From assembly GCA_965644295.1 (NCBI GenBank), contig CBFFRP010000373.1, positions 186,001 through 250,000 of the forward strand: a stretch of 64,000 nucleotides of DNA, in the 5' to 3' direction. This document shows positions 10,888 to 45,024 of the stretch, piece by piece; within the stretch, counting starts at the first letter, position 1; each line of letters opens with the position of its first letter. The notes beneath the pieces are model-generated. The model did not search any database. It was not told where the DNA came from and was given only the letters and a program-made list of their open reading frames with translations. The DNA comes from Paraphysomonas bandaiensis. Taxonomy: Eukaryota > Protista > Chrysophyceae. The translations under genes and the position numbers were made by a program.

Positions 10888-12639
10888 GGCTGTGATATAA
10901 ATATGCCAATAAAGCAAATGCTACTGTTGATTTGCCAACACTATTGTCTCCAAGTTTAAGTATCTAGACCTACAAGATAATGGAGAGCTTCTATGATTAT
11001 AATGGGTTTTATCAAGACTGGAATAATGGTGTCCCCAGGCTTGTACACTAATAATGCAACGTTGCTATGGGTCTATTTTGTATATAACAACATGACTGTA
11101 GTATGGTGTGTAATGTACACAAAACAGCACCTTATATGTACTATCGTACTGTATGTATGCACTCACTTCCGCCGTTTCATTTTCGTTTTATGGGCTCTTC
11201 ATTTCTGCTGCTCTTGACTTCGATGGTTGATTCGTAGACAAAAAGGATTTCAAACACCAAAATCTCGAATGGGCACTCACTTTTCAGTTTTTCTTAGAAA
11301 TCTTTCCATGTGTAGTGTGCATATCCTGCAGTGGTACACCTGAACTGGATATGGTCAATGGATTGTTCCATAGGGTTACTATTTCTAATAACGAGATATT
11401 TTACCATACATTATTGACCATATCGAGAACTGACTGCACTGAGAACCAACAGCACAACAGCACTGATATTCTCTGTGTTTACATACAACCAGCCATTCTC
11501 TGTGCTTAATGCTATGCTTTTGTACATCAATTACCATTTACACTAGACCCCTCCTTGTGTAAACCACAGCAGTATGTCGTTGCCATTCATGGCAACAGTG
11601 AGCGTCGTCCTGGATATCACGCCGCCTTACTGGGGAGGTAGCAAATTTCGCGACCGAGGTTTACACCCTTGCTTTTTGCTAGTGCGCGAGTTTTTGGCAA
11701 ACCATTAATTTGTTCACTACATTCTTTGCTTAGACCGCGATACGTTCCAAGAGGACGTATCATTCCTGAGGATATAATGTGAGTTTAGTATGAAATTCTC
11801 GACAAAATTGGAAACAGTGTAGATGTCAGCCTACACGACTACGGAATCGTGTCTATGCTGTTGCACCTATAAATAACTAGGGATAAGCATTCCAATATAT
11901 TCATTACACTGTTCCGTAAAGCACTATACTGGATATCTTAGATGAAAATTTGAAGATTGGGTGTTACTGTCGTTGAGACAACAATCAGAACGTAAGAACT
12001 GAAGACACCAATCACACGATATTGAGCTTATGACGATAACGCTTAAATATATACCATAAAATATGCTTGATAGTAACTATGATCGTTTTCAATGTTCCAT
12101 GCAAAGTGATGCCGGTACATATCACTGCATGAGTATCTGAAGGTTGATAGACATATCATTATATCTAATTATATACCGTGTGATCTGACTGCCGCAATTC
12201 CTTGTTGAATCAATTTGTTGATGGAATTCAGATAACTCAGAAATCCTACCGATCTGCTAGTAATTACATGAGGAGGTATGATTAGGAGCACAGCGTCATA
12301 ACTTTAATTCTTCGAAGTAAAAGATTTAATAAAATGGTAATTTATATATATGCAGTTGACTGCCTCCACGTATCAGTACGCCCTATACTCTATATCATCC
12401 GAGCTACGAGTAACTTCATTATTCACAATTTCTTTTGAGACTTCGTTATTTGTTAGTTCGACTGTATGCTTATGCTCCCTTTGTTTTTCGATGTCAACTC
12501 ACGTGCTAGATATGCTTCTCAGGGTTAAAATTACACTGCTTATTAACATATAGTATTTACATATAACAATGACGCTCGACAATCAGGTGCCGTGGATGTC
12601 AAGCTGGTGTTCATCTTCCTCCTGTATTTCTATTGACAC

Positions 12640-12857
12640 ACACTTGGGGGTACAAAGCAGTCAACTTATCCACCAGACTTGAATAGCATAACAGCCAGAT
12701 TTAATTAGTGACTTGCATATAGCCAATGAGAGGTACAGGCCCACAAGCTTTCCAATTAGGGATTGCAATTTGTTTTATCTCCCAATATAAAATTCAATTG
12801 CACTGAAAACCATATTATTCAACCAGCTGTAATTCATCGACTCTTGGAAAGACTTTC
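12640..12857 (-). pseudogene. Decayed hAT-type transposase fragment
   Basis: Frameshifted PLIG(Y)ASH*LNLAV and YSSLVDKLTAL. The DNA resembles 53272-53312 (YSGLVDKLTDL) inside the hAT element. Confidence 0.6.
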
Positions 12858-13187
12858 AAGTCGGACTCGGACCTTCTTGTGGTGTTCTGGGAGATAAATA
12901 CCGGAGATATTTCTCCGGGAGACTAGCATGAGCGGCATATATAGTCAGCAGATATCAGATAGTGTCCTGCCCACTCATAGCCTAATGAGTGTGTGGTACA
13001 AGAAGGGACACTTACATAAGAGTCGCTTGCGTAAATGTCTTTGGGTCTTGACGAATGAACAGACACAAGCAGCTTTCGTAGCGCTAAGTTGTAGGATATC
13101 AGAGTTAAGGACTAGTTTGTTAAATTGTTTTGCTACATACGTTCTGAGTTTTACATGCCTAATCCTAATAATCAGACATTCACTACT
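12858..13187 (+). repeat. Hairpin-rich dispersed repeat, copy A (left and right ends joined)
   Basis: Aligns by eye with 54591-55026, 44445-44766 (reverse) and 45025-45160. Contains the CCGGAGA-tatt-TCTCCGG hairpin and ends CAGACATTCACTAC. Confidence 0.85.
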
Positions 13188-13412
13188 GACTTTTTGGCAG
13201 ACGTCGTTGATGAAACTTTTTTCCAGCAGTCCGGCGACATGTATACTCCGTCTCCCAGTAAGAATGATTATATGTTGAAAGCCTGAAATAAATTTGTTCC
13301 TTATACTAGTTAAATATAGTTATTAGTTATTATTTACCGCTTTTGATTATGTACAGATGTACAGTATCAAATTGATGGATTGATGGTATTAAATTGCCAT
13401 TATTTGAAACAA

Positions 13413-13475
13413 GTTGTAGTCAATTATAATTGCAATCATTATGCTGCCCCAATTTCAATAATTAACAATTAAATG
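13413..13475 (-). repeat. Relic of the hAT subterminal region
   Basis: Reverse-complement match to ~54110-54175 (CAATTATAATTGACTACAAC). Confidence 0.65.
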
Positions 13476-18860: not shown

Positions 18861-19209
18861 GGTTTTAACAGACCACACTCGTACACAACTCAATCGAAGG
18901 GCTTATGCATTTTTCTTCCGCTATCAAATTATTACACCTTAAATGATTAATACACTCAGCTGATAACAACCCTCAGCGTCTACTCTATATATGCGGTATA
19001 TATCGTATTAAACTGAAGTTCAAACAGTGTAGAGAAGTATATCTAGAATGAGGTGGAAGTGTGGTATACCGTATACAAAAATTAGGAAAGGAGGATGAAG
19101 GATGATATAATGGCGATAGATAGTCGTCTGTACCACATGATATAACTCCACTGGTATACCATGGGTATACAATTGAATACAGATGGATTTTAAAAGTGGA
19201 GATGCGATG

Positions 19210-19496
19210 CGTAGAGGAATGAGAGGATGTTCTTTTCAGTTTAGTACTTGAAGTGACTGTATAAGATATGCATAGGGCACATAGAGGTGTATGGTGTTAT
19301 ATTATGCAGTGTGTAGTGTACGGCTGTAGAATAGAGGCATAATTTCCTCTTACTGAGAAGTTCTGTAGTAACTATAAAGAGAACCTTGCTTTGACTACCT
19401 GTAGTGTAGACTGTGTGAAAGCAACGGGGGTATTCCGTCCGTTTATTGATTTGTAACATCCGTAACATTCGACCGAGTACCGTATTTTTCTCTGCG
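19210..19496 (+). repeat. 5' LTR of Copia-1 (287 bp, CGTAGAG...CTCTGCG)
   Basis: Direct repeat of 31814-32102. The only difference I see is GAAAGC vs GAAAAGGC. Confidence 0.95.
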
Positions 19497-19508
19497 TAAG
19501 AGGAAATT

Positions 19509-21065
19509 ATGAAGAAGACAACGAACGACAAGCCAACAAGATTTGCAAGATTCGGCAAGAAACCGAGCACAGATAGACCAGAACATATACCGACTTTAAG
19601 ATACGGTGCCAACTCGAACTTCGCCACATTCAAACAGAGGCTTGTAGTGGTGGGCATGCAAAAGTACGGTGATCTTGCACGCCTAGTAGAGCTGGACAAA
19701 TATTATGAGCCCGATGCGATAAACCCAGAGGATTTTGATTTGGAAGACGACCCCTATGGAGTTAACCTCGACCTGATGAAGGACAAGACCAAGACCAGAG
19801 GGAGATTAATAGACAAGATGCGGAACGATAGATCGGCATTCTACTCATTCATGGTAGACCATCTGAGCCACGAATCAATGGATGCAGTCAAGCTATTAGA
19901 TGAATACGAGCTCATGAACAGGACTAAGGATCCTCTACTACTATGGCTGGCTATCAAACAAACCCACAAAGTATCCACTAACTCCAGCGTAAGTACAGTG
20001 GTACGAGCAGAAGCGAGGAAAAGGTACAAAGACGCTAAACAGGGAGCATATGAGAGTATAGTTACTTATAAGGAGAGGTTTGATCATCTATTAGAAGCCT
20101 ACAAAGACATGAACAACGCGGAAATGAATGAAGAGGACATCGCGATGGATTTCTTCGAAGGGCTGGACGACATGAGATATGGCGATTTCAAAACTAGCTA
20201 TCTCAACGATCTAACAATGGGAACGCAAACAGCACCTACACATGTAAATGAAATATATACTAAAGCATCAAAATATCTAACGCCGAAGAGAGCAACGAGA
20301 GCAGGCGGCGGATCCGCATTCGTGAGCAAATCGAAGTCTGACAAAGGCAAGAAATCAGCAGATAGCGATGATACACCAGAGCAGCAACAAGGGAACGACA
20401 CGAAGTCGCACAACAGCAAACGTGGTCAGAAAAAAAGGCAGCTCATATGTTGGGGCTGCGGTGAGCCAGGCCACAGAATGAACGAATGCCCAGACAGTAG
20501 CCAAGAATCAGAAAACAAGCACTGCACGACAACAATGTTGAACGCCTTCACGTCAGGAAGCGAGCCATTCCAATGGTACGAGGTATTGCTCGATAACCAG
20601 GCTGATGTCTCAGTAGTACACCCAAGACTACTGAACAATGTAAGACCGGCGTCCAAAGGATGCACCGTGGCGGGATTATCGGGACACGCACTGGAACTAC
20701 CGAATGTAGGCGAGCTAGACCAATTCTTCACCTGTAAGACAGCGGATGAGCTAAGGGCAAGCGTACTATGTCAGGCGGACGTAGAAGACATATATGAAGT
20801 GACATATAGGCAGGGAGAGTCTTTCACTGTCCACTTACCTGACAGTGATTTGACTTTCTATCGAAAGAACAAGATGTATGTGGCCGACATGCGCGACTGG
20901 GCGACGGCCAAAGTCAACGTAACGACTGTAGCGGAGCGCGAAGCCCAATATTCGAAAGTAGAAGTCGCGAGAGCACGAGAAGCACGAGACCTGATCCGAA
21001 ACTCGGGCTTCGACTCGGAGAGAGATGCTGTGCAGCTAGTGAGCGACGGAAACGTTACAGGGGTG
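19509..21065 (+). CDS. Copia-1 gag-pol, 5' part (gag, CCHC knuckle, protease)
   Basis: CWGCGEPGHRMNEC knuckle and VLLDNQADVSVV protease-like motif. Joins in frame to 28969 (VTGV|RLTP) when the Gypsy and one GGTG are removed, giving 1461 aa. Confidence 0.93.
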
Positions 21066-22260
21066 TATGAACAACTCAGGTCTTGCAACCTAAGATCACT
21101 GAAAAGATATGTGAAATGGTTGTTTGTCGAAACAACGAAACAGAAAACTATAATAATAACTCTTTAAGAAACCAACAGCCAGAAACACAAGCTCCCCTGT
21201 ATCCTGCAATCTAAAGCTCCCAATAGACAGATCAGTCAACCAACTATGTTAATTTCATAGAGAATTATTATTAAAACTAAGTTACAAGCGAAACAAAAGA
21301 CAGACCCCTCTAGCCTAAAGACTCCTCCTCATACACAGGACATTGAATGCAACCACAACCGTACAATGTGCTCATACATGTACTACACTACATACGATTC
21401 TTATCCTACATCGTTTATAGTCAAAAACTCCCTGAAATACGCCTAAATAGGTCCTTTCCAAAAAACTCCGATTTTTGAGTCCAAAAACCCAAAAATCCCC
21501 AATTTTTTGAGAATTGCAGAAAATCGCCGATTTTCGAGCCACAAACACCCAAAAATGACAATATTCGATTCCACAAAAATTGCAAGCACATTTCATGACA
21601 ACGTGAAATACACAATCGCCAACTCATGCATAATACCGACAAAATGCAATCGGGTTCAAAAGCTTACAATCGAACGGTTAAATATCATTTCCTTGCAAGA
21701 GTGTGTACTTTAGACTGGACCATACAAATACACTCATATTCAGATCACTAACATGCCCATGACACCTCTGCATCTGCGTCCAATGGCACCTTACGAATTC
21801 CTCCCCATTCCGGAGAAAATCAACGGTGTATGGCAATGGGAAAATAATCGTATATCATAGTCCGGAACGATGAGCAAGCACATAGAGCTGTTCAAAAACA
21901 TCAGAAGACTTCTCATATCGATGGGTGGACTACGAATATCGCACATGCGGTACCAATCAATGCTTCCTGACCCAAAACGCTATGACACCGACTACCGTAT
22001 GGATATAGGCGTAAACCGACGGGTAGCAATCGCGTAGATCAAAGAAAACGTGTGTTCGAGGGTAAATCCTAGTTGTCTGTCGTCTTGCCCTCGTAATAAT
22101 AATCTGTATCTCTTGTTGTCACCAATCTTATACAAAACAAGCTACATATACCCTACATATTATGTTATCATATCGTTATTGCATTAATATAGTTATCAAT
22201 ATTATTATGATGATGTCATTAAACGTGTTAAAGGGTGTTATAAAAGCCCACGGCTTTACA
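21066..22260 (-). repeat. 3' LTR of Gypsy (1195 bp)
   Basis: Near-identical to 27772-28964, with one 2-nt indel seen (ATGTGAAATGG vs ATGTAATGG). Contains an imperfect ~59-bp tandem at ~21468-21557. Confidence 0.96.
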
Positions 22261-22263
22261 TTA

Positions 22264-22280
22264 CCCTTTCTCCCCCCCCC
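22264..22280 (-). other. Polypurine tract of Gypsy
   Basis: Minus strand reads GGGGGGGGGAGAAAGGG, then TAA, then the LTR start TGTAAAG. Confidence 0.9.
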
Positions 22281-22291
22281 GGATGCCGTAG

Positions 22292-25200
22292 CTACTCCTG
22301 AATAATTTTGGGATAAGCCGCAGCGAGCGACGCATCAACCAAAATCATGCGAGCAGGTTCAAAATCCTTCTGGGACCCCCAACAATAGACCAAATAGTTG
22401 TCGAAGGCATAGTTGGAACCGTTGAGATTAAAACGGGCGCTAATCTTGCGTTTGGAATTCTTGTGATACCAATGGGTGTACGTGAATTCCATGACATACG
22501 CGGCCGTGGCATAATCCGGTAAACCAAGACTCTCGTACCACAGGTCACCGTAGAAACTGAGATCAACATAAACAGTATCTCCAACCGACACTGTTGTGAT
22601 ATTCTCTTTCCTCATTGAAGAGATAAAACGCTTCGCCGTAAACGAGTCGTACGCGAGGTGTCGCAAGTAAGGCCTAGACTCACAAAAATCGTAATATGCC
22701 TCACACTGAATATCCGGTGTCCATGGAATGTCCAAGATATCGCCGTCCGCATACTTCACCTTGAAGACCATCGTAGATTTGGTTCGTGAATCTCCCGTAT
22801 ATGAAAGAATCTCCTCCACCTTAAATTGTTCATGGTCTCGCATCGCCGCCTCAATAGCCGAATCCTTATCTCCGAAAAATGGCTCAAGATCAGAGACAGA
22901 GTATTCCCGAATTCCCCCGGTAAGAAGATTTCGAATTTGAACATCATTCTTGTATTGCCGTACCACTTCGAAAGGACCCTTCATCCTCGAGGATAATTTC
23001 GGATGTGGTTTAGCACCAGCGTCGAACATAACAAAATCGCCTGGACAATACTGGTTTTGTTTGGCAGGATCCAAACCCGCTTCCGCTCGTTTCTCGACTA
23101 GAGACTTCTGGTAGTCTGCTGATATCTGACGAACAAGAGCTAAGTAATCGTTCAGCCTTTTCAACAGCTGATGAGACGGATCATTGTCTCTCCCCTGGGC
23201 GGCCAAAAGATTCTTATAGATAGAATCCTGGGACCCAAACGTCAGTTCGAATGCAGAATACCCCGTCTCACTACTCTCGTGGGTATTCAGAATGAACATG
23301 ATAGTGGCAAGTAACAGTTCGTCCTCCAAAACAGCATCAGCCTCGATTCGCTTGTCAAAACAAATAGCACGGATGTGACGAACCACTTCCTTAATAATAC
23401 GCTCACATCCGTTGACGTGCCTGTTGGCAATACTAAATACATGACGAAGTCCTGACAACTTAACCAGTTCTGCGAAAAGTTCTGATTTGAGATCAGGACC
23501 CATATCTGATATAATCATATCCGTGAGCCCGTATGTACACCAGCACTTCCACACTGCTGTAGCTAAATTGATAGCTGTCATTCCTTTCACCGCATATAGG
23601 CACACCAATTTCGTAAACAAATTAACCATGACCACAATATGCGTGTAACCAGATTTAGAAACAGGTGTAATAGCAACCGCGTCAATTCCCAAAGCACTCC
23701 TGGAATGAGGCGGTTTTAAATGTCTAGTGATAGGAATCAATCGCTGCTTCAGCTCTCGCCTATTCTTCTGACAGTTGATACATTCGTCCACGAAGTCTGC
23801 AACCACCTTGAAAGGCACGCCGTGTCCCGGAAATTGCCTACACAGACGTTTCCACGTCTCTTTCGCACCCCAGTGTCCTGCTTGCGCGTTGTGAACCTCT
23901 TTGATAGCCTGGTAATAATCTATCCTCTGTACCTCCGTAGGCGGCGCGATCTCTTGAACGTCGTCCTCAAAATCGTCTTTTTCAAAGATGTTATGCAGTG
24001 TCACGAAGTTCACTTCATCTGAGTCGAAATCGTCACTTTCGTCCACAAATCCGGACAAATACAGCAATCTTGACAAGCAATCCGCAACCACATTGTTCTT
24101 CCCTGGGATATGACGAATCAAAAAGTCAAAATCCTGCAAATAAATTCTCCATCGAATTATCTTCGCAACTTCTGATGCCTCCATCCACACAAGGTTGTTG
24201 TGGTCCGTCTCGATTGTAAATTTCTTTCCTCTCAGATAAAACGAAAATTTCTTGACTGAATAGAATATACCAAAACCCTCCTTCTCAATAGTACACCACT
24301 TCAAGGCTTGCTCTGACAATTTCTTGGAACAGATAGCAATAGTTTGCTGTTGAATCGGACTAGACCCAGTTCCCTCAACAGTCTGGAAAAGAATGCCTGC
24401 CACTCCATAGTCACTGGCATCTGTCCTAAGTGTCCACTCAAGATCATAATTCGGATAAAACAAAGCACAAGACTGTTGCAAACCACTCTTATAGTTTTCA
24501 AACTCCTGCCTATAATCGTGCTGCCATGTCGTTTCTTCCCAATTAAAACTACTCTTAGTCATATCCGTAAGATGTTTGACCAAATCTGAGTAATTCTGAA
24601 CAAATGGAGCAAAGAATACTCCCAGACCCAACAAAGATCTAATCTTCTTACATCTATTTCCATTCTCTGGAAAAGGAATCTTCAATAAAGCCTCTTTCCT
24701 ATCGTCCGTGAGCTCGAAACTATTGTGCCTTACCAAATAGCCAAAAAACTTGATCTCCCTAAATCCTAACCAGGTCTTTGCAAATTTCAACACAACTCCA
24801 TGTTCAATGCATCTATCCAGGAAAATCTCCAGCTTCTTATACGCATCATCAAAATCATGTGCCAATAACAGAACATTATCAAATATACACAGCGCCCATT
24901 CCAGATCTCCAAACAATTTGACTACCGCTTCTTGCAACACACTAATCCCTGGAGACACTCCCTCCGGAAGGAATAAAGGCTGAAATTGGCCCCACGGTGT
25001 TTGAACTGACAATTTTTCAGATGTGTTCTCATGCAACCTGATCTGATGGAACGCATTCGTGAGGTCAATGTCCATAAATATCTTATAGCCAATAATACGA
25101 TCCAACTCATGTCTTACATTAGGAACTGTATAGTGTGGACTTGGAATGTACTTGTTGATTTGCACGTAATCCCCACAAATCCTAATAAAAGGTTTCGTGG

Positions 25201-26230
25201 CTTTTGGCGCGATCACCAAACAAGAAGCCCACGGCGACCTACTAGGAACATAGATGTAACCACACAGTCTCCTAAACTCCTTCTCCGCATCCTCATATAA
25301 TCTAGGATTTACGGGTCTTGCCTTCGGCTTGATCCTAGGAGGCAAATTCTCAGCGAACTTGATGTTCAACGGATCCACTCCTTTTATACCTTCCCACCGC
25401 TCTGGAACAAATACCTCTACTCCCTTAGTCCTCAATAACTCCAGCACCGGTCGCGCTGCTGAGAACTCTGGAGACACGTGCTCACCAAACATATCCTCGA
25501 ACTCGCTCAAAGCTTCCTCTCTAGTCTTTCCAAGAAAACTTGAGGCAAATCCGAACTGCGAAGGGTCCGGAACATCCAATTCTTCAGGTGCTACCTCCCT
25601 ACTACTGTCACACCACGGCTGCAATAATTCTTCAACCGCATTCAACAACAAATCATCCTCGGTAACATCGTCCTCACGCCTTTTAATAAAACTTACTTCT
25701 GATTCAATTCGTTCAATAGTCCTTCCTTTAAGCATAAATAGAAAATAATCCCATAGATCCTTAACGATAGCCGGAAGTCCAATAATAATATCGTTGCTAC
25801 CCATATCAGCAACAATGAAATCCCCGTCATATAACACGAACTCTCCCTTGGAGTCTTCTCTCTCAAACCTCAATTTTAATTTCACTACAAAACTACACTT
25901 CATTCTCGACGTTTTATCGGCAAATCCTATAACTGTTTCTTTTTTTATGACTTTGTTTTCACACACATGATTTCTAAACGTCTCAAACAAATCCTTGGAA
26001 ATGAAGTTAGATGTTAGGGCTCCAGTGTCGAACAATATTCCACGCACAGATATTATATAGTTATCATCACATACAATGCTTCCCCCAGAATGAGCCAATG
26101 TCAAGTCTTTTCGTTCTCGCGTATTACAGACATTCATCAAATTTCTGAGGAAAACTCGACTAACAGTCTCAGGATCATTCAAACCGTACAATATTTCTTC
26201 GTGATCCTGCGAACCATTAGCCTCGCACAT
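22292..26230 (-). CDS. Gypsy pol: protease, RT, RNase H, integrase, chromo-like domain, extra C-terminal domain
   Basis: Protease LFDTGA; RT RICGDY, DIDLTNAFHQI, CIFDNVLL, KFFGY; RNase H TDASD, EKE, TDH, ADCLSR; integrase HxxxxGH..CINC and D/D/E (GIDAV, ISDMG, GCERI); chromo-like FKVEEILSY..FKVKY..W. Confidence 0.96.
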   Translation of the reverse strand: MCEANGSQDHEEILYGLNDPETVSRVFLRNLMNVCNTRERKDLTLAHSGGSIVCDDNYIISVRGILFDTGALTSNFISKDLFETFRNHVCENKVIKKETVIGFADKTSRMKCSFVVKLKLRFEREDSKGEFVLYDGDFIVADMGSNDIIIGLPAIVKDLWDYFLFMLKGRTIERIESEVSFIKRREDDVTEDDLLLNAVEELLQPWCDSSREVAPEELDVPDPSQFGFASSFLGKTREEALSEFEDMFGEHVSPEFSAARPVLELLRTKGVEVFVPERWEGIKGVDPLNIKFAENLPPRIKPKARPVNPRLYEDAEKEFRRLCGYIYVPSRSPWASCLVIAPKATKPFIRICGDYVQINKYIPSPHYTVPNVRHELDRIIGYKIFMDIDLTNAFHQIRLHENTSEKLSVQTPWGQFQPLFLPEGVSPGISVLQEAVVKLFGDLEWALCIFDNVLLLAHDFDDAYKKLEIFLDRCIEHGVVLKFAKTWLGFREIKFFGYLVRHNSFELTDDRKEALLKIPFPENGNRCKKIRSLLGLGVFFAPFVQNYSDLVKHLTDMTKSSFNWEETTWQHDYRQEFENYKSGLQQSCALFYPNYDLEWTLRTDASDYGVAGILFQTVEGTGSSPIQQQTIAICSKKLSEQALKWCTIEKEGFGIFYSVKKFSFYLRGKKFTIETDHNNLVWMEASEVAKIIRWRIYLQDFDFLIRHIPGKNNVVADCLSRLLYLSGFVDESDDFDSDEVNFVTLHNIFEKDDFEDDVQEIAPPTEVQRIDYYQAIKEVHNAQAGHWGAKETWKRLCRQFPGHGVPFKVVADFVDECINCQKNRRELKQRLIPITRHLKPPHSRSALGIDAVAITPVSKSGYTHIVVMVNLFTKLVCLYAVKGMTAINLATAVWKCWCTYGLTDMIISDMGPDLKSELFAELVKLSGLRHVFSIANRHVNGCERIIKEVVRHIRAICFDKRIEADAVLEDELLLATIMFILNTHESSETGYSAFELTFGSQDSIYKNLLAAQGRDNDPSHQLLKRLNDYLALVRQISADYQKSLVEKRAEAGLDPAKQNQYCPGDFVMFDAGAKPHPKLSSRMKGPFEVVRQYKNDVQIRNLLTGGIREYSVSDLEPFFGDKDSAIEAAMRDHEQFKVEEILSYTGDSRTKSTMVFKVKYADGDILDIPWTPDIQCEAYYDFCESRPYLRHLAYDSFTAKRFISSMRKENITTVSVGDTVYVDLSFYGDLWYESLGLPDYATAAYVMEFTYTHWYHKNSKRKISARFNLNGSNYAFDNYLVYCWGSQKDFEPARMILVDASLAAAYPKIIQE

Positions 26231-26233
26231 TTG

Positions 26234-27703
26234 TCAAGTCACTCCACCAGGCCTCGGCAAAATCTTTCGCGGCCCTTTGGAATCATCTGCCATCATCTGA
26301 GACAGCTTCTTCATCATCCATTTCCGGGTTTCCGTTGCAACTGCTCCATTATGACCCTGGACATGCTTACATTCCTTCCCTTTGTAGCAGTTCCCATACA
26401 ACGCATACGCAACGCAACCACGGGTTGGATTAACAGTCTTCTCTAGGTTCATCACCTGTTCTATAGCTTCCTTATCAGACTCTGGTTCGCCGAGCAACAT
26501 CTCCTCAACCTCATTCTCGAAATCATCATCTGACATCCCGTCATCCTTGACCACAACTATCGGGTCAACCTCCTTGTCATCTAAATCACTGTAGAAATCA
26601 TCCTCAACTCGGTCCGCAAACTGCACGTTGTTTAAAGATTTCGGTTTCTCCTTTGCAACGTATCCATTGTCCCGATTCCTCGAACTCCTTTGAATTTGCT
26701 TCCTACTGAAATCGGACCCTTCATAAGGCACCAATCTGATGTTCTTGGACGCCTCATAATGCTCACTCGCCTTGGAAACGTATGTATCCAGAAACTCTTC
26801 AACATTACCATAATTAGTATCCGTCACCCTTGGAATCTCAGCCAGAACTCGTTTGTTGTAAGACTCGTCGATCAACTCCAAAAATACTTGAGCCGATCCA
26901 AACTCTTTTCCTCCAACCGGCGGACACTTAGTACTATTGGCCTCCATCATGATAGTAAACGTACGCATAAAAATACTCTTTCGCTTCAAAATCTCTTGAA
27001 AAAACAGCTCATGTGTATTCGGCCGCACTGATTTCCAATCCAGTGGCTTAAAATATCTCAGCGCGTATCGCAAAGTCTCAATGAACTCAACTTTGGACAA
27101 CACCTTGGTCTCCTTAGCCATCATCTCACAGAATTTCTGAGCACTCAACTTAACAAACATTTTATCCGTCAAGCTATTGTTGAACATAAGCAGGTTCCGA
27201 ACACGCCTGCTAACTATCTGGGCTGGCTCAAGCTTAATCCCATTGATCTGTTCATATTCAAACCATTGGATGATAAACTTTGTAAAATCACTAAGCTCCA
27301 TCGAATCCAGAAAAATATGCTTATGGGATGGCTTTTCAACATTGATGATGACATGCTTTGGAACCTCCATTCCCTCTGAAGACTCAGCCTCCCTCATGAA
27401 TACAGATGTCCTTCGCTCTTTCTTCTTGCCTTTGTCGTCGGCAGCCCTGCCACTCTCTCTGGTATGTCCCTGCTGCTCTTCACGCTGGTCACGGATGGCC
27501 TCATCTACTTCCTTCTGAGCTTCCTCCAGCTCATTAACTAAAACTTCTTCATTAATAGACATTCTGGACTCCAGATTATCTACCCTACTGGCAGTTGCTA
27601 CACACAACTTAGTGACGTTCTCCAAATTGAGAGCAATTCCCCGTAACATTTCCTTAACTTCATCTAACTCAGATGAACCAACAGGACCCTCCGAATCAGA
27701 CAT
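26234..27703 (-). CDS. Gypsy gag (489 aa; coiled coil, CCCH-like finger)
   Basis: ORF directly after the 5' LTR and in the same frame as pol; C-x8-C-x5-C..H near the C-terminus. Confidence 0.88.
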   Translation of the reverse strand: MSDSEGPVGSSELDEVKEMLRGIALNLENVTKLCVATASRVDNLESRMSINEEVLVNELEEAQKEVDEAIRDQREEQQGHTRESGRAADDKGKKKERRTSVFMREAESSEGMEVPKHVIINVEKPSHKHIFLDSMELSDFTKFIIQWFEYEQINGIKLEPAQIVSRRVRNLLMFNNSLTDKMFVKLSAQKFCEMMAKETKVLSKVEFIETLRYALRYFKPLDWKSVRPNTHELFFQEILKRKSIFMRTFTIMMEANSTKCPPVGGKEFGSAQVFLELIDESYNKRVLAEIPRVTDTNYGNVEEFLDTYVSKASEHYEASKNIRLVPYEGSDFSRKQIQRSSRNRDNGYVAKEKPKSLNNVQFADRVEDDFYSDLDDKEVDPIVVVKDDGMSDDDFENEVEEMLLGEPESDKEAIEQVMNLEKTVNPTRGCVAYALYGNCYKGKECKHVQGHNGAVATETRKWMMKKLSQMMADDSKGPRKILPRPGGVT

Positions 27704-27771
27704 TTCGATATATATCTATAAACTACAATAATGATATCTTCACTTACGTGTTTTACCGTGAGTAAATTTAC

Positions 27772-28964
27772 TATGAACAACTCAGGTCTTGCAACCTAAG
27801 ATCACTGAAAAGATATGTAATGGTTGTTTGTCGAAACAACGAAACAGAAAACTATAATAATAACTCTTTAAGAAACCAACAGCCAGAAACACAAGCTCCC
27901 CTGTATCCTGCAATCTAAAGCTCCCAATAGACAGATCAGTCAACCAACTATGTTAATTTCATAGAGAATTATTATTAAAACTAAGTTACAAGCGAAACAA
28001 AAGACAGACCCCTCTAGCCTAAAGACTCCTCCTCATACACAGGACATTGAATGCAACCACAACCGTACAATGTGCTCATACATGTACTACACTACATACG
28101 ATTCTTATCCTACATCGTTTATAGTCAAAAACTCCCTGAAATACGCCTAAATAGGTCCTTTCCAAAAAACTCCGATTTTTGAGTCCAAAAACCCAAAAAT
28201 CCCCAATTTTTTGAGAATTGCAGAAAATCGCCGATTTTCGAGCCACAAACACCCAAAAATGACAATATTCGATTCCACAAAAATTGCAAGCACATTTCAT
28301 GACAACGTGAAATACACAATCGCCAACTCATGCATAATACCGACAAAATGCAATCGGGTTCAAAAGCTTACAATCGAACGGTTAAATATCATTTCCTTGC
28401 AAGAGTGTGTACTTTAGACTGGACCATACAAATACACTCATATTCAGATCACTAACATGCCCATGACACCTCTGCATCTGCGTCCAATGGCACCTTACGA
28501 ATTCCTCCCCATTCCGGAGAAAATCAACGGTGTATGGCAATGGGAAAATAATCGTATATCATAGTCCGGAACGATGAGCAAGCACATAGAGCTGTTCAAA
28601 AACATCAGAAGACTTCTCATATCGATGGGTGGACTACGAATATCGCACATGCGGTACCAATCAATGCTTCCTGACCCAAAACGCTATGACACCGACTACC
28701 GTATGGATATAGGCGTAAACCGACGGGTAGCAATCGCGTAGATCAAAGAAAACGTGTGTTCGAGGGTAAATCCTAGTTGTCTGTCGTCTTGCCCTCGTAA
28801 TAATAATCTGTATCTCTTGTTGTCACCAATCTTATACAAAACAAGCTACATATACCCTACATATTATGTTATCATATCGTTATTGCATTAATATAGTTAT
28901 CAATATTATTATGATGATGTCATTAAACGTGTTAAAGGGTGTTATAAAAGCCCACGGCTTTACA
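27772..28964 (-). repeat. 5' LTR of Gypsy (1193 bp)
   Basis: Direct repeat of 21066-22260; element-strand termini TGTAAAG...GTTCATA. Confidence 0.96.
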
Positions 28965-28968
28965 GGTG

Positions 28969-31797
28969 CGACTTACCCCGAGTGATATCAGAAGAGCTTT
29001 TGACATATATGGGAGACCGTTCGAAGCGGTGAGAGGCAAGCAGACGAATAAGAAAGTCAGCCGGCAATACGCGGATCCGGAACTGAAGGCAGAACAGCAG
29101 AAGGAGCAAAGGCTGTACACAGACATCTTCAGTGTGAGACAGCAATCGTTCATGCTCACGCTAGCGGAACCATTGGGACTAACCATCGTTACTTCACTCG
29201 AAAACGAAACAACGGATCAGTTGGGATTGGCCCTACAGGAACAAGTAAACCTGTTAAGAAGCTACGGGTACATACCGACAGTTACCTACCTGGACCCTCA
29301 GCCGGGATTCAAGGCCCTGAGAGGCAAGATCACAGGGATGGAGATTGACGTGGCAGGGGCTGGAGATCACCTGGACAAGATCGACGCGAAGATTAGGCGA
29401 CTCAAAGAGACAATACGCAGTGTACATTCAGGGCTACCATGGAACCTACCAGATGCCAACGTCAGAGACCTGGTGAGATACGCCAACAGCCGCATGAACT
29501 TGAGGAGGCCATCCACCAATGGCACAACTGTAGCACCGCGAGTGGCATTGACTGGTCGGAAACCCAATTATAAAAAGGAACTGTCACTGGCTTTCGGGGA
29601 CTACGTAGAATGCTATGACCCGAAGGTCAAGAGCAATAACGCGGAGCAGGCCAGAACAGAACCATGTATCGCGCTGTACCCATCCGGCAACGCAAACGGG
29701 AGTTGGATATTTTTAAACCTTAAAACAAATAAATATGTGAGTAGGACCAACTGGGTGAAGATGGTGACCACGCAAATAGTAATAGACGCCGTGAACAGAA
29801 TATCGTCATTGCACAACAAGTCACACTCACCTGTCACGACCAGCGAGAATGAGAGTCGAGAGATTGAGGATACCACGCCACCAGCTGAGAATGACGAGAT
29901 CGATAAGCCGAAGGAGCCTCACGAGGAGGGGCAGATGACAGCAGTTGACACAGACGAAGGGCACGGCCACACAGAAGAGAGAGAGAGAACAAAAATCACG
30001 GAACCAGTCGACGATGATGGCGACCGGGCTGATGGGCCGAGCGAACAGGAGCCGGGCGCTGCAACACCCAACGACATCGACGATCCGGAATTTACAGGGG
30101 TGGAAACTGCAGGGATGACACATAACACAAGCGAACTACTATCATCATCATCATCAGCCGGAGCAAGGATAGCGGCAGGCACAAGAAGAAAGCCCGTAAT
30201 GTATCGAGCCTATCACACAAGCGTAACCAAAGGTTTAAAGGAACACGGCAAAGAAGCCTACCTGGCGATAGTACGGGAGCTGAAGCAGCTGCTGCATGAA
30301 AAAAAGGCGATAGTTCCAGTACACCGGAGTGACCTATCAAAGACTCAACTCAAACGAACAATTCGATCGCTGATGTTTTTGAAGACGAAATACGACGGAC
30401 TCGGAAGGTTCGAGAAAATCAAGGCGAGGCTGGTTGCGAACGGGGCACAGCAGGATCGGAAACTGTACCCAGACACGTCGTCACCCACTGTGGACATACA
30501 GTCAGTATTTGCATGCCTAGCAATAGCAGCGAGAGAGGGGAGACATGTATCGACAATTGATATAGGTGGTGCATACCTCAATGCGGAGATGTCAGGCGAA
30601 GAGGTAATAATGGAATTGGAGCCGATGTTGGCCACAATACTCAGAAAACTAGACCCCACAATCCAGCCGTATGTTGATGAAAGAGGCAAAATATTGATGC
30701 GCCTAGACAAAGCGTTATATGGATGCGTGCAGAGCGCCAAGCTCTGGTACAACACGATAAGAGCTTACCTGGAGAGCATTGGTTTCGTGGCTAACCCGGT
30801 GGATCAGTGTGTTCTCAATAGGACTGTCAACGGCAAGCAGTGCACTATAACACTACACGTGGACGATCTGCTAGTGCTATCACAAGACAAGCGTGACACC
30901 GAGTGGTTGGTGGAACAACTAAAGAAACAATATGGTGAGGTAAAATACTGTGATGACAAAGACATGTCGTATTTAGGTATGCATGTGAGCATGATAGATG
31001 ACAGGGCAGTGGTGTCAATGAGGGCTTACCTAGACGGAGTGCTGGAGGAGGCAGCGGTCACTGGCAGAGCAGCATCTCCAGCGACATCATCACTGTTCGC
31101 AGAGGGCGCAGGACAGAAATTGGGGAGGAAGGAGGCTGCCAATTTCCATTCAGTGGTGGCCAAATTGCTATATCTGTCAATAAGAGTTAGACCAGACATC
31201 CTGCTCAGTATAGCGTACCTCACAACAAGAGTGAAGGGTCCGACAATCGGAGATCAGCAGAAGTTGAATCGAGTGCTGAAATACCTTGCGCACACAAGGG
31301 ATCAAGATCTGCAGCTGAAGATTGGAGAGCAGCTGCGGGTAAGAAGCTTCATCGACGCTTCGTTCGCCACCCACGAAGACGGAAAAGGGCATACAGGCGT
31401 GGTTGTACAGCTTGGAGGGGCCACAGTACTATGCCGATCAACTAAGCAACGAATCGTGACGAAAGACTCGACCGAATCCGAGCTGGTCGGCCTATCTGAT
31501 ATGATGTCTAATGCAATGAGATTACATGAGTTTGTGTGTGGGCAGGGCTATGCGCTTGACCCACCTGTTATTTATCAGGACAACTTGTCGAATCTCAGTC
31601 TCGTAACGAAAGGAGGAGGCAAATACCGATCGAAATATCTACGAGTAAGGCAGGCTTTAGTCGAAGAACACCATGATAGGGGAGACGTGAAGCTTCAGTA
31701 CTTACCTACAGGAGAGATGTTGGCTGATGTGCTGACTAAACCCCTACAAGGAAAATTGTTTCGTCATTTGATATGTCTGATCGTTGGGAACGAGTAG
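28969..31797 (+). CDS. Copia-1 gag-pol, 3' part (integrase, RT, RNase H)
   Basis: RT: KARLVANG, DIGGAYL, KALYGCVQSA, LHVDDLL. RNase H: IDASFA, STESEL, YQDN, ADVLTKPLQG. Confidence 0.95.
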   Translation, partial: RLTPSDIRRAFDIYGRPFEAVRGKQTNKKVSRQYADPELKAEQQKEQRLYTDIFSVRQQSFMLTLAEPLGLTIVTSLENETTDQLGLALQEQVNLLRSYGYIPTVTYLDPQPGFKALRGKITGMEIDVAGAGDHLDKIDAKIRRLKETIRSVHSGLPWNLPDANVRDLVRYANSRMNLRRPSTNGTTVAPRVALTGRKPNYKKELSLAFGDYVECYDPKVKSNNAEQARTEPCIALYPSGNANGSWIFLNLKTNKYVSRTNWVKMVTTQIVIDAVNRISSLHNKSHSPVTTSENESREIEDTTPPAENDEIDKPKEPHEEGQMTAVDTDEGHGHTEERERTKITEPVDDDGDRADGPSEQEPGAATPNDIDDPEFTGVETAGMTHNTSELLSSSSSAGARIAAGTRRKPVMYRAYHTSVTKGLKEHGKEAYLAIVRELKQLLHEKKAIVPVHRSDLSKTQLKRTIRSLMFLKTKYDGLGRFEKIKARLVANGAQQDRKLYPDTSSPTVDIQSVFACLAIAAREGRHVSTIDIGGAYLNAEMSGEEVIMELEPMLATILRKLDPTIQPYVDERGKILMRLDKALYGCVQSAKLWYNTIRAYLESIGFVANPVDQCVLNRTVNGKQCTITLHVDDLLVLSQDKRDTEWLVEQLKKQYGEVKYCDDKDMSYLGMHVSMIDDRAVVSMRAYLDGVLEEAAVTGRAASPATSSLFAEGAGQKLGRKEAANFHSVVAKLLYLSIRVRPDILLSIAYLTTRVKGPTIGDQQKLNRVLKYLAHTRDQDLQLKIGEQLRVRSFIDASFATHEDGKGHTGVVVQLGGATVLCRSTKQRIVTKDSTESELVGLSDMMSNAMRLHEFVCGQGYALDPPVIYQDNLSNLSLVTKGGGKYRSKYLRVRQALVEEHHDRGDVKLQYLPTGEMLADVLTKPLQGKLFRHLICLIVGNE

Positions 31798-31813
31798 ACA
31801 CATCACAGGGGTG

Positions 31814-32102
31814 CGTAGAGGAATGAGAGGATGTTCTTTTCAGTTTAGTACTTGAAGTGACTGTATAAGATATGCATAGGGCACATAGAGGTGTATGGTG
31901 TTATATTATGCAGTGTGTAGTGTACGGCTGTAGAATAGAGGCATAATTTCCTCTTACTGAGAAGTTCTGTAGTAACTATAAAGAGAACCTTGCTTTGACT
32001 ACCTGTAGTGTAGACTGTGTGAAAAGGCAACGGGGGTATTCCGTCCGTTTATTGATTTGTAACATCCGTAACATTCGACCGAGTACCGTATTTTTCTCTG
32101 CG
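31814..32102 (+). repeat. 3' LTR of Copia-1 (289 bp)
   Basis: Direct repeat of 19210-19496, followed by the TSD CGATG. Confidence 0.95.
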
Positions 32103-33215
32103 CGATGTGTGGCAGGGAATACCGCCGTATACTATTGTATAATGCTGTCCATCATTGCTGTGCTGTGGACAAGTGACGTATATGACCACTAGATCCGAGT
32201 CCTGGAATATAAAGTACAACATTATCAAAATTAATAGAGATCCCGAAGAAATGAATAATATATATCCTAGTCTCAGTACAAGTGATAGTTTTTTGTGTCA
32301 AATTCCAGTGCTAAACTGTTCGGTTGAGTGATGAAAACACGAATCTTGTACTACTTGCTCTATATAATGCACACACTGATTATTTTCAGTGACAATGTTA
32401 TATAATCACATACAAGAAGAAACTTGTTACTTAACTAGAGGAGAAAAGAAAATGACAAAAATGTCTTTATTCAAACTATCCCAACCGATTACGTATGTAT
32501 CAATCACACTAAAATACTTGCGCATAGCACTGTTTATGTAACCGCTTTCTGAAGAGAAGGCGTGTGACTTTATTGCACAGAATATACCCGCGACATATCA
32601 TAAACCCACCACACCACTTTTGATCTTCGAATTTAACGTTGTTGGTGCCATATCATCTGCAGACTGCAGAGTATGGATTATGGATATATTCCGTTTCGAT
32701 ATTTATATTGCCATGCTTTGGTTAATACTAAAATGGAATGATTTAAACTGTCGATCGGTCATAGATTAAGGCTACTCCTTCATATTATATCATGACAACA
32801 AAAGAGTATTCCTACCCATCACCAATGTCAAGACGTCAAGACAACACTCCAAATATTGTTAAATGACATGAGAAGTATCTGAGACATTTCTTTGTTGTTA
32901 TATATTCTCAAGTTAAATCGATGAAAACAATGTGTATTTAACTGCATTTATTAAAAATGCTCTACCCAACAACTCCCTGGCTTCATACACTGATTACATT
33001 GTAATCAATTGCTAATGTATTGTTCATGAACGCTGGTAATATATACTATATACCCATTTCGGAGCATTACCAAAGAACAGCGTATGACGTGTGCAATATA
33101 TTGCAAAACTCAATATATCAAGTGATATCGAAATAAGTGATGTGGGCAATAACATAGAAAAGATGTCATGGGACAGTGTATGGAGAAATAATTACATTGC
33201 AGTTTACAGTGCAGT

Positions 33216-37509: not shown

Positions 37510-38644
37510 ATAGACGAGACTTTCTACCAGTGGATGATATTTCACCTGATGACACACGAGCTTGATCTAATACATGTATATATAATCCTTTATTTTATTG
37601 ATAGTTGAAGGTGGGCAGGTATATGTTGGATATTTCGTTTCATATTGTCGAATTTTAGTGTTAAAGTACCATTGCAGGATAATATTGAAGCTAAATTGGT
37701 AGATTTTACTTTGTTATGAGTAATGTAAATTAATGACGAAGTATGCTTGCAGAATACGAAGGTGTTATTGAGCTATATTCTTTAACCTAGTCCTATTGGT
37801 TGAAATAACCTCTTCGAAATAATGAATAATTCTCAGTAGGCAAATTTCAGTGAAAAACTTGTTGTAAATTAGTATTATCCGCATTAATATCTTTAAGTAA
37901 AGATAAGTTGAATCAACAAAAAACGGTTCTACTAAAGATTACTACAACAGAGATGCAAATCGCGTGCTAGGGTTTGGAAATTATACAAAAGTATTCAAAA
38001 TCTTGTGAATAGCGCTGGATAGTAGTACAACCAAACATGAAAGAATTATGCTTGTCTGCCTCACACAGATACCCTTTATTACGGTGCCTGTGCGGCATTA
38101 TGCTATGCGTGATTTGTAATAGTCATCACTCACATGTATAGAAGTTTGTTGGAAATTACTCATCCTTAACAAGATCTCACGGAGAATTTGTCGTTAGACT
38201 AGATAGATTTATTAATGTCGTTTACACAAAGTTGTGATACAAACAACACATATTGAAAATCTGATTATTAAGAAGCGCAAGCTTGTGCGTTGCCGCGACC
38301 AACCTAACAACTCGCGCGACACTATGCATAACATGACTCTCATCTAGTTACTATTGCATGCACCGACTGTTGAGATCTGAAGATTCTATATACTTGCAAT
38401 TGAGTGCAGTATTATGTGAGATGCAAGGATCGAAAGATATATATGTAATTAGTACATTATATTATGTAGTATGAAACTGAAGTAGAAGTGGATGACTATA
38501 CAGGATACGATAACTGAGTGTGTGGTTTGTACACTATAGTAGTAAATGAATGGTGTTGAACACATCGAACACAACTTAGGTTCTTTATCATGTAATGTTT
38601 ATAATTTCATCTTATCAGTTGAGAATAGTAAACCTTAGCAAATA

Positions 38645-41600
38645 ATGTCAACTTCTGTTATGGTAGCGAATGCTAGTTGTAGGGATGGGGAAGATGACAA
38701 GAAGCTACGGTTTGACAAGAACCAAGCAGACTATTCAGCGAGAAAAATCAAGATGCATCTAATGAAGAAAAACCGAAACCATCTTGGTTTGGAGGACCCG
38801 CCAGCCGGAGGAAGGAATTTAGAGTCATGGAGAGAGCGTAATGATACCTGTGTTAGTACTATTTGGGAGGCTTGCGAGCATGACCCTGATGTGTTGGAGG
38901 TAGCCAATCAATATTTGGAGGGGAAGACAATTTTACCTGCTGATGATCCTGCTAAGGAGGTGTTATCCAGTGAGCTCCTTCAGACACTGGTTGATAGGTT
39001 CAGAGGCGAGATTGGGACTGTATTGGAGAAGACTACGGCAGAATACCATTCGTTCAAAATAAGGCCGGGGGAAAAGGTGTCTGTTGGGGTAGATCGACTG
39101 AACGGTATAATCCAGAAGCTCATAAAATTGGGACAACCGCAGACAGAGGCAAGTAAATTAGCAAAGATAAAAGCAGCGCTGCAGATAGAGGAATTACATG
39201 ATTTATGGATGTCGGTAGCGATGATGCCTAAAGCAACAACTACATTTGATTCGGTGAAAGAGGCTTGTGAAGAGTATGACGAGGCTATGACGCAGCTGAA
39301 GAAACTAAAGGGAGACAAATCTGAAGAGATCAATTTTACGGCGTCGAAGGAGCCAGTGGTTTGTTCATTTTGTCGGAAGAAGGGACATGTAGCAGCGAAT
39401 TGTTATGCTAAGGAACGACAAAGAAAAATGGATAAGTTCAAAAGAAAAGGGAAGACAAAGGAAAAGGCTTCGAAGAGTGTGCAGCAGCCAGGATCAAAGG
39501 ATTATACTGGTTGTCATATCTGTGGAGATTTTAGTCATAAAGCCCGACAGTGCAAGTCGAAAAAACGGAAGAACATAAAAAACCCGGATAATGAGAATCC
39601 TCGAAAATCGAACAGGAAATTCGAGACAGAATGGAAGAAATACGTCAACGACGGAGAGTCGTCGGATGATGAAGCGAATATGTTTGGAGAAGAGGTTTTG
39701 CTATCGGTGGATACGTCGGAAGAACCTCGTGTATATCTGGACAGTTGTGCAAGTAAAAGACTGTTTATAGTAAAGGATAAAATTGCACTGGAGTCATTTA
39801 CTCCTGAGTTTGGGGCAATCCAACTAACTAGAAAGGGTTCTCAATTGGAGACACAGGGAACTGGTACATTCGGGGAATGGAGAGACATCAGAGTTAGTGA
39901 AGAAGCGGTGAAGAACATTGTGTCAGGAGGAATGCTGAGATCAATGGGATACGGATTACAACTGCTTCGAAAGCCTAAAATCGTGGAATTGGACTCTGGA
40001 AACGAGGTGTTGACTGGAGAGTACGATGAGCATGGAGGAATGCCGTATGTGGACTTGATGGAGGTGTTAAATCTGCCAAATGTGTCTATGTGCAATCAGA
40101 TGGAGGAGGTAAATTTGTCGGATAATACAGGACAAGATGCGTTGGATCGCTTACATGAGCGTACTGGACATGTCTCGAAATCGAAGTTAATAGAAGCTCA
40201 CCGACACATGTTATTCAGAGGATCAGGACTACAACGACATCACCTTTCGAAGGCAAAGGAGAAGAGTTGCAAGAAACCCCTGTGTAAATGGTGTGCCAAG
40301 GCGAAGATAACCAGGCATTCGTTCAAATCACGGGACAACGAAGAGCTAAGCGCAGTCAGGTTTCTGGAACGAGTGACAGCGGACATCTCAGTCTACCTGA
40401 ATTGTGAATCCAGACAAGGGTATAAGTACGTGCTCCTATTCACGGACTTAGCAACAAAGATGATATGGGAATATGGATTGAGGACTCGAAGCGGAGAGGA
40501 GGTGTTCAAATGTCTAAGACACTTGTGCGAGGTCCACTTAGTGAAGTACGAGGGGTGGAACCGTATAGTGGAGTATCATGCCGATGGAGGATCCGAACTT
40601 ATTAGTCAGCAGATAAGAGAGTATCTGTTGCAGCGATATGGGACTCGGGTGTCACATACAACACGAGACACGCCAGAGCTCAACGCGGTGTCTGAGAGGA
40701 AATTCCGAACAATTGGGGAGATGACACTGACGATGTTGACGGCATCTGGACTTCCAAAGTCGTTCTGGTTTGATGCTTATCAAACTGCATGTTACATTGT
40801 GCGACGAATGCCAACTCGGACGTGGCAAGGATGGATGTCTCCATATGAGTGTGTCCCAGGGGGGAGCGTTCCCAGCCTATCGTGGCTACGGAAATGGGGG
40901 TGCAAAGCATATGTGCTAACACCCAAGGCCGACAGGAGGAAGGACTGGGAGGACAAAGCAATGACAGGTTATTTCATAGGGTATCCAGCTGATCGAAAAG
41001 GATACAAGGTGCTAGTGGGGGACACCGTAGTACACTCTGTACATGTATTATTTGATGAATCGGTACCTGAGAGGTCTCAGGATTATTATAGAGAGCTGGA
41101 GGAGGCTCAAGTGGCTATAGATCCCGAGGCTCGTCAACCGGGTGAGTTTGAGTATCTTATCGGAAAGCACCATGAGGATGGTGGTCTGCTATACAAGACT
41201 AACAGAGTGGTGATAAGGAAGGGACTTATTGTGGGATACCGGTCGTTGGTTACTGGTAACCAGGTTCAAGTGGAGGATAAAACTCCTATTCATATTGCTG
41301 ACATCAAGAAGATGACAGAGGATCTTGCGCAGAGGGTGGTTAGGGCCAGAGTTACTGACAACCGTGACGGCGGTATCAGCGGAGTGGTGCCACAGCAGTC
41401 GGAAAGTGGGCAGGTGCAGCCCCAGGCTGACTCAGCATTACCTTCGGGGGAAGGGACCCCTGCCGAGAATCATCCGCACGGCAAACGCGCAAGAACTCCA
41501 AGGACGGTAACGAATGTGTCGGTGTTAGGACAAATCCATCATTTGAGTGATGAGAGTGATGTGAGTGACCTTTTACAGGAGGCAGACTCAGTAGTGTGGA

Positions 41601-43246: not shown

Positions 43247-44444
43247 GTACTGAGTTTTTTAGACAGAGGTTTAGACTTAGAGATGAGTCTATTTTACTGT
43301 CAAGAATTTTTTTATCTCAGGCATTCAATAGCTGGGAGGCGTCATAGTACAACACTCAATTGAGGGGGAGTGTTGAGATCTGAAGATTCTATATACTTGC
43401 AATTGAGTGCAGTATTATGTGAGATGCAAGGATCGAAAGATATATATGTAATTAGTACATTATATTATGTAGTATGAAACTGAAGTAGAAGTGGATGACT
43501 ATACAGGATACGATAACTGAGTGTGTGGTTTGTACACTATAGTAGTAAATGAATGGTGTTGAACACATCGAACACAACTTAGGTTCTTTATCATGTAATG
43601 TTTATAATTTCATCTTATCAGTTGAGAATAGTAAACCTTAGCAAATAATGTCAACTTCTGTTACCGACAAGTGCTCAACTATACAACACGATTTAGTTAG
43701 CTACATGGGCATACGACGAGTTGCGTGTTTAAGCCGGATCATACGCTCCTGCCCAATCTACTTGTCCTAATACAAACAACTTGCGGTCGGTGTCTTCGGC
43801 ATATGTCTCCTGTATATGCGGCAGATCTTTAGGGCCCTCTTCAAGGTGGTGTTCACAGCAGCAGGTAGTCTGGAAGGGAGAATAAAGTAGCTCTATAGCG
43901 CCGGGTCCTCCCACGGTCACGAAGCGGTCTCACTGGTGCAATTTTGCACACTGACGCATGAAACAGACATCTACCAAAATCTGTTACAAATTCAAGCTGA
44001 CTCCAATGTCTTCCCTCCATTGTGTGCACTCATCCAGCACATGCATCCACCTTGCACTCTTCTCCCGACGAGTGACTTACACTAGTAGGAAACCGTGCAC
44101 CTTCCCCGCTCGGATGAAAACCTACTAAGCAAGAATAACATAAAAGCACCACAAATGTACCTGACACTGCTTGGAGAACAGTGCCAGAGCCTTGATATAA
44201 TCTCAATGACCTGGGTCAGGAGAAACCAAGACTAGGCAGTAGACGTGTGAGAAGACATGACAGGTCTAATCACATCATTGCCATTGCCATGCATCCATGA
44301 GGAAAGTTTGACGCATTACCTCGGTCATTGGCCACACAGATACCGAATAATGTGAACTCATACTCAGCATCAATCACTCAAATCAAACGCAGGGAGCAAG
44401 CAGAATGTTGATATACCTGACATCTGCTGACTTCAGGTGTTTTG

Positions 44445-44766: not shown

Positions 44767-45024
44767 ACAAACAACACAAACTCATTTTGTTCCACTCAGA
44801 ATATCCTACATATGCGTGGGATACTAAACATATCTTGAAAGATCAAACTATAAAGTTATCGAGGCCTTAGCTTTCCATATTTTTGATGAAGACGCACAAT
44901 TATCTGCTTATGTATAACAATAATGTGTCCCACCAGTCCTGCTAATACTGAAAATCGATGTGCATAAATGGCATCAATAAATTTAACTCCCTTGTCATGT
45001 TATACTCGCCACCCAGCAAAGGAT

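Follow-up and report, generated by a model that had tools for sequence, protein, structure and literature searches.

A Ty1/copia retrotransposon whose long terminal repeats (LTRs) begin and end with CG, in place of the TG...CA that would be expected, lies in the stretch of Paraphysomonas bandaiensis DNA that was analysed (64 kb, hereafter the window). We consider it probable that this is a recent insertion, with CG...CG ends and a 5-bp target-site duplication (TSD), from a clade whose D-D-D integrase likely prefers a CG-3'OH end and which likely primes its own reverse transcription.

Anatomy of the element

The element spans 12.9 kb, made up of a copia element of about 5 kb and a 7.9-kb Gypsy element nested within it. 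Its features, numbered by position in the window, are as follows.

19205–19209, + strand: left TSD (CGATG), its register set by the breakpoints of other insertions
19210–19496, + strand: 5' LTR, 287 bp, CG...CG
19338–19353, + strand: predicted self-primer, beginning at CA, a perfect reverse complement of 19496–19511
19496–19511, + strand: predicted site of self-priming instead of a tRNA primer-binding site (PBS), starting on the terminal G of the LTR
19509–21065, + strand: 5' part of the polyprotein, with gag, a protease-like region and the start of the integrase
21066–28964, − strand: nested Ty3/gypsy element, with 1.2-kb LTRs that are 99.8% identical and ends TG...TA
28969–31797, + strand: 3' part of the polyprotein, with the integrase core, reverse transcriptase (RT) as well as RNase H
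31804–31811, + strand: polypurine tract (PPT), a motif conserved across relatives
31812–31813, + strand: 2-nt spacer TG between PPT and LTR, the same as in TG..CA relatives
31814–32102, + strand: 3' LTR, 289 bp, CG...CG
32103–32107, + strand: right TSD (CGATG)

The domains are arranged as gag–protease–integrase–RT–RNase H in a single polyprotein, such that the integrase lies upstream of RT–RNase H. The gag region has a weak CCHC knuckle (about 20448–20492), and the RT is of the copia type (RVT_2, about 30358–31068, E 4.1e-27). Membership of Ty1/copia (Pseudoviridae) is found on each of its marks, namely LTRs with a TSD, domain order and an RVT_2 RT; absent are three traits that are typical of the group without defining it, TG...CA ends, D,D(35)E with HHCC, and, judged by the lack of a TGG-type site behind the 5' LTR, a tRNA-complementary PBS. 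The sequence-only reading had held that such a family would be invisible to standard annotation, which is overstated, since RVT_2 detects the RT and the claim applies at most to motif-based boundary calling.

The nested Gypsy element splits the copia integrase and has a 4-bp TSD (21062–21065 and 28965–28968). Its gag (26234–27715) and pol (22292–26233) occupy separate frames on the minus strand; neither a tRNA-type PBS nor a self-complement of more than 7 nt was found in it, and behind its 5' LTR is a palindrome of 12 nt, the terminal A being part of it, that recalls the fungal GalEa site as described in the available text of PMC5445492. A second copia element (38368–43663) is intact, with a 1535-aa frame, a D,D,E integrase, a TGG-type PBS, TG...TA ends and a 5-bp TSD. 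The window also contains a dispersed repeat family in direct and inverted copies that are 70–89% identical (12591–13475, 44446–45160 and 53553–55025).

An uninterrupted relative of 1461 aa, P0005, is 99% identical to the element over the 3' part of the polyprotein, and its cluster contains a transcriptome entry. Sequence of the element is present in marine public runs, and in three runs the interior is covered at 14–19 times the depth of the flanks, which points roughly to a multicopy family, such depth not being a copy number. No solo LTR or second copy of the element was found within the 64-kb window. The LTR (19210–19496) is read at far greater depth than the interior, and one contig of run X8 leaves the element right behind the self-priming site; together these suggest many solo LTRs or non-autonomous derivatives.

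Boundaries of the element

The copia element occupies 19210–32102 with CGATG on both sides, and a 2-bp indel is the sole difference between its LTRs. The termini are inverted at six of seven bases and, as had been read from the sequence, neither LTR ends in CA. The same reading had assigned CG...CG with a CGATG TSD and inverted ends from this one site. All of these are indeed observed, but the single site leaves four registers with a perfect TSD, namely CG..CG (5 bp), GC..GC (5 bp), TG..GC (4 bp) and TG..CG (3 bp). Because TG precedes both LTR copies in the window, a single site is unable to exclude a TG start. Moreover, all four registers imply one identical empty site, such that an empty-site comparison is blind to the differences among them, and this test of the register was rejected.

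Other insertions are informative in this regard. Junctions were surveyed in contigs of the public runs X1, X2, X6 and X8 (at most four samples), and what follows holds among the loose ends listed, 24 of 100. Mixed flanks are seen in contigs that begin at 19210 in X1 (n = 5, agreement 0.49) and X8 (n = 2, agreement 0.65), and in contigs that stop at 19496 in X6 (n = 3, agreement 0.54) and X8 (n = 2, agreement 0.62). Loose ends at 19208 come from the element's own PPT side only (five contigs in three runs), and none of the breakpoints listed lies at 19209 or 19495. All four runs contain the present insertion as well; they may derive from one strain, with the mixed flanks belonging to other insertions. 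In runs X9–X12, which were used for the left end only with the flanks uncovered, there is no 19210 contig and there are six PPT-side contigs at 19208, and in three of these runs a sister-subfamily contig begins exactly at CG, which is a weak hint. Runs X9–X12 lend no support to the junction and contain no empty site.

With the TSD read on both sides for one insertion only, the present one, we are all but certain that the element ends in CG...CG with a 5-bp TSD, and the breakpoints of other insertions that are listed agree with the boundary proposed at the outset. The competing view is that CG...CG is an illusion of register, the true left end being TG at 19208 (3- or 4-bp TSD) or G at 19209 (GC..GC). 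The TG ahead of both LTRs, the four perfect-TSD registers and the 4-bp TSDs of diatom CoDi3 and CoDi4 (PMC8147415 supplement file 3) are in keeping with it; it is rendered extremely improbable by the seven mixed-flank contigs that start at 19210 and the five that stop at 19496, by the same TG spacer ahead of the TG start in canonical relatives (see below), and by the ends themselves, which match at six of seven bases from the terminal base only in the CG register.

Terminal dinucleotides of relatives

From an alignment of 44 homologues, 79 metagenome loci were obtained, being the best of 568 confirmed stretches, together with three from prokaryote genome bins (L080–L082). These three are elements of the same eukaryotic lineage, and their occurrence in bacterial bins is probably contamination. 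The viral contigs searched gave no relatives.

Downstream of RNase H, the relatives share the PPT, the 2-nt spacer and the LTR start. A left-end motif model that leaves the first two LTR bases unscored placed 62 loci above its cut, with 66 examined; the LTR left ends of the 62 are TG in 37, CG in 20, CC in two and other in three, and the spacer is TG in 51. The same TG spacer stands before the TG start of canonical relatives, from which it follows that the TG at 31812 is spacer and not LTR. From the sequence, this spacer would presumably be removed by 3' processing. In the canonical L026 the spacer is followed immediately by the flank; L045 has a flank without a terminal TG, and in L006 and L023 the LTR copies diverge right after CG at the 3' end. 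Where both ends could be scored (n = 31), they are TG..CA in 19, CG..CG in ten, CG..CA in one, TG..TA in one and TG..CG in none, most 3' ends of relatives being called by stem position and terminal inverted repeat rather than by flanks. TG..CG ends for L016 and L045 were considered and rejected, as the PPT lies upstream of the region first examined. Two near-identical loci inside the CG clade, L032 and L036, have an LTR start of CC behind RNase H.

All CG 3' ends fall in one RT–RNase H clade, with SH-aLRT 99 under LG+G4 (31 of 85 rows) and likewise under a mixture model (28 of 76 rows), these trees being quick searches without bootstrap and with a distant outgroup. Short RT rows were omitted (seven of 78 from the LG+G4 tree and nine more from the mixture-model tree), and in the tree counts the left ends of L021, L037, L038, L042, L050 and L077 were entered as unknown and that of L061 as TG by eye. 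On both trees the 3' end state changes once; CG left ends require three changes, in the clade and in L047 (CG..CA) and L055 (CG left end), which lie outside it. The clade is one of aquatic single-celled eukaryotes and includes proteins from Chaetoceros (P0058, from a transcriptome), Amoebophrya and a Paraphysomonas cluster, being known there from protein only, and the Paraphysomonas protein belongs to the cluster of a relative that is 61% identical. Members of the clade are about 40–60% identical in protein, and none that was scored has reverted to TG or CA. The CG ends and the Asp described below count as one evolutionary event, and many rows are near-copies. The earlier proposal of CG-3'OH at both ends is backed by other insertions as well as by the clade of CG-ended relatives.

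The integrase and end specificity

The Asp codons of the integrase core lie at 29122, 29293 and 29383 (D-D-D). At the third catalytic position (residue 658 of P0005, codon 29383), 21 CG-group sequences have a residue, which is Asp in 20 and Asn in one, where L023, L051, L057 and L060, which are outside the trees, were put in the group by their ends; all 31 sequences outside the CG group have Glu. Some DDD transposases also use a third Asp. In alignments, position 658 falls on the catalytic Glu of chain 7z0h_W (E 5e-9), a yeast Ty1-type integrase that we take to be the Ty1 integrase, on that of the second copia element of the window (probability 99.2) and, weakly, on that of RSV integrase. The predicted structure of the core (pLDDT 91.9) matches retroviral integrase cores. 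Four further positions of helix alpha-4, 652, 654, 663 and 667 (P0005), also differ between the CG group and the others, and in HIV-1, according to the available text of PMC2794180, alpha-4 recognises the LTR end.

A search for HHCC ahead of the core found none in 44 of 44 aligned homologues and four TG..CA loci. The pattern missed the control element too, such that the absence of HHCC rests on a count of residues, with Cys being scarce: in P0005 the 96 residues ahead of the core (471–566) contain neither His nor Cys. Pfam rve matched one of 45 aligned integrase cores, which is probably the control element.

Judged from these sequences, integrase end specificity has likely shifted. Correlative support comes from the two ends changing together and from the alpha-4 changes on the same branch; since it is a single branch, the association of CG with Asp is a historical coincidence and not a repeated covariation. 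In this respect, the CG...CG ends could be real and the integrase merely tolerant (of C-purine, or more loosely), with CG fixed once by drift and held at U5 by primer pairing (see below), and with the Asp as an unrelated passenger. The single origin of CG and Asp on both trees would fit such tolerance, as would the CC starts within the CG clade and the two loci L047 and L055, which retain Glu at position 658 while having a CG left end, so that a Glu enzyme can apparently accept one. Odd ends also seem to be commonly tolerated in this genome region, given that none of the three full LTR elements of the window has a CA end and that the two neighbours of the element both end in TG...TA. The diatom elements CoDi3.2, 4.2 and 4.3 likewise have TA ends (PMC8147415 supplement file 3). 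Against this, primer pairing leaves the U3 end unexplained, and yet each of the ten elements that end in CG, and whose left end could be scored, also begins with CG, while TG..CG occurs in none of the 31 elements. Neither does any scored clade member go back to TG or CA, despite the low protein identity and although the mutation of CpG to TpG or CpA is an easy one where CpG is methylated. On this evidence we regard tolerance as unlikely, albeit deserving of serious consideration, and a true preference of the integrase for CG as the probable reading of the sequences.

Priming of reverse transcription

No TGG-type PBS was found behind the 5' LTR of the element. The 16-nt complement between LTR and leader compares with a maximum of 12 nt in 5000 shuffles, a null that covers the stem of this element and not the stem lengths of other loci, and the longest such complement in the tRNA-primed neighbour is 6 nt. 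Stems were then surveyed, picked by length alone, in 49 loci with sequence upstream of gag, including the window: 39 have a perfect stem of 11–18 nt and ten have none of at least 11 nt. Between families the stem sequences are largely unrelated, and yet the stem starts within 2 nt of CA or CG in 39 of 39. In 31 of these it starts on the terminal LTR base (19 A:T and 12 G:C) and in eight off it, the pairing at the terminal base being A:T where the element ends in CA and G:C where it ends in CG. The partner arm begins at CA in 35 of 39, against a background of 0.25; near-copies inflate these counts. CA at the start of the partner arm resembles the initiator consensus, and by analogy transcription of the element may be placed as starting near 19339. 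An RNA fold, set beside the two flanking duplexes (pretzel) of Tf1-type priming, has one adjoining R–U5 helix. In one X8 contig the match to the leader runs precisely as far as 19511, beyond which the sequence departs.

By analogy with Tf1, self-priming of reverse transcription is very probable for this element. As TG..CA sisters also have the stem, it is older than the CG clade. The gag ATG (19509–19511) forms the last three bases of the self-priming site and would lie inside the primer duplex, by which translation could be coupled to priming. This position of the ATG would also suit a stem that served in translation control or packaging, with priming by an unrecognised host RNA, and a copia hairpin at the PBS position is known in GalEa, which its authors, in the available text of PMC5445492, were unable to fit to the Tf1 model. 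The lack of a TGG-type PBS behind the LTR speaks against a stem of this kind, as does its position, since all 39 stems start at the end of the LTR and 35 of the 39 partners start at CA, which is the geometry of Tf1 as given in the available text of 10.1101/2022.12.06.519325; we deem a non-primer role very unlikely.

Proposed mechanism

Taking as a starting point what can be read directly, namely the ends, the TSD, the PPT with its spacer, the 16-nt complement, the Glu-to-Asp change and its mapping to a single branch, the enzymatic steps may be envisaged as follows. Transcription would begin near 19339, as in Tf1, and the RNA would fold back such that its first 15–16 nt pair with 19496–19511, after which RNase H would free the RNA 5' end as the primer. 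The last C of the primer would pair with the last G of the LTR, so that the terminal base of U5 would depend on the sequence of the primer. With the plus strand primed from the PPT, U3 would keep a 2-nt extension, which the integrase would trim to expose CG-3'OH, and both CG ends would then be joined with a 5-bp stagger. The changes in alpha-4 (P0005 652, 654, 658, 663 and 667) may fit the active site to a G rather than an A. The present copy was later disabled by the Gypsy insertion; the family has intact members.

More broadly, and at somewhat less than an even chance in our estimation, a widespread and hitherto undescribed protist Copia clade may have re-engineered the active site of its integrase, turning D,D,E into D,D,D with neighbouring changes in alpha-4, for CG-3'OH, so breaking the CA rule at both ends. 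In the larger lineage around it, self-priming without a tRNA would be a clade-wide trait of independent origin, with the last base of the primer setting the U5 terminus.

Comparison with known systems

Kinship of the element to named CoDi elements is presumed here from the style of the sequence. The CoDi Ty1/copia elements of diatoms (Maumus 2009, PMC2806351; Filloramo 2021, PMC8147415), in so far as the available text describes them, are alike in domain order, short LTRs, a length of about 5 kb and stramenopile hosts, and the Chaetoceros protein P0058 falls within the CG clade. Some CoDi families are described as being without TG/CA in the available part of PMC2806351. The end motifs in the diatom tables, however, all begin with T, with none being CGCG and one being TTCG (PMC8147415 supplement files 2 and 3), and the accessible portions of PMC2806351 and PMC8147415 report neither self-priming nor a D-D-D integrase.

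Non-canonical copia elements of plants (Tos17 TG..GA, TARE1 TA..CA, AtRE1 TA..TA, and TGTT/AACA) likewise have normal TSDs, and AA..CA ends are reported in Rosaceae (10.1101/137141 for the former, PMC5659011 for both, in the text available). These plant cases, as far as those sources extend, are single families and mostly asymmetric, whereas the CG clade is deep and symmetric and its ends occur together with a changed catalytic residue. In the LTR_retriever survey, according to its available text, only the first T is invariable (10.1101/137141), and elsewhere LTR ends are characterised by an ‘invariant CA’ in the available text of PMC5329712, where the element has CG. With the D,D(35)E integrases of retroviruses and of Ty1, the element shares the core fold and the first two Asp, and presumably the 2-nt trimming at U3; it differs in the third acidic residue, which is Asp instead of Glu.

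As regards priming, the leader behind the 5' LTR complements the presumed RNA 5' end both in Tf1/sushi elements and here, but Tf1 is a gypsy element with LTRs ending in CA, as opposed to the copia order and RVT_2 of the element (10.1101/2022.12.06.519325, available text). From its sequence, the element would be Tf1-like in priming without being a member of the Tf1/sushi chromoviruses. Within copia, self-priming has been predicted for the TAR lineage of plants (Houba, Osr1) in the available text of PMC6317226. Compared with Tf1 and TAR, the stem here is 11–18 nt long, takes in the last base of the LTR in most cases, and is present in the CG as well as the TG..CA branches of a protist lineage.

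CG..CG LTR ends, a D-D-D copia integrase and CoDi-type self-priming are unreported in the literature searched, with Repbase, GyDB, most subscription journals and some supplements outside its scope. The feature is real and broader than the sequence-only reading had it: a form of Ty1/copia from a likely self-priming lineage, on one branch of which both the terminal dinucleotide and a catalytic residue have changed.

Significance

Retroviruses and LTR retrotransposons are generally taken to have a near-invariant terminal CA and D,D(35)E triad. A clade in which both are changed, with living sisters in which neither is, makes the residues that read the terminal base directly testable, and the covarying stems provide a large comparative set for the study of self-priming beyond Tf1. 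In practical terms, such elements would be dropped from protist genomes, or misplaced in them, wherever boundaries are called on the condition of TG..CA or an initial T.
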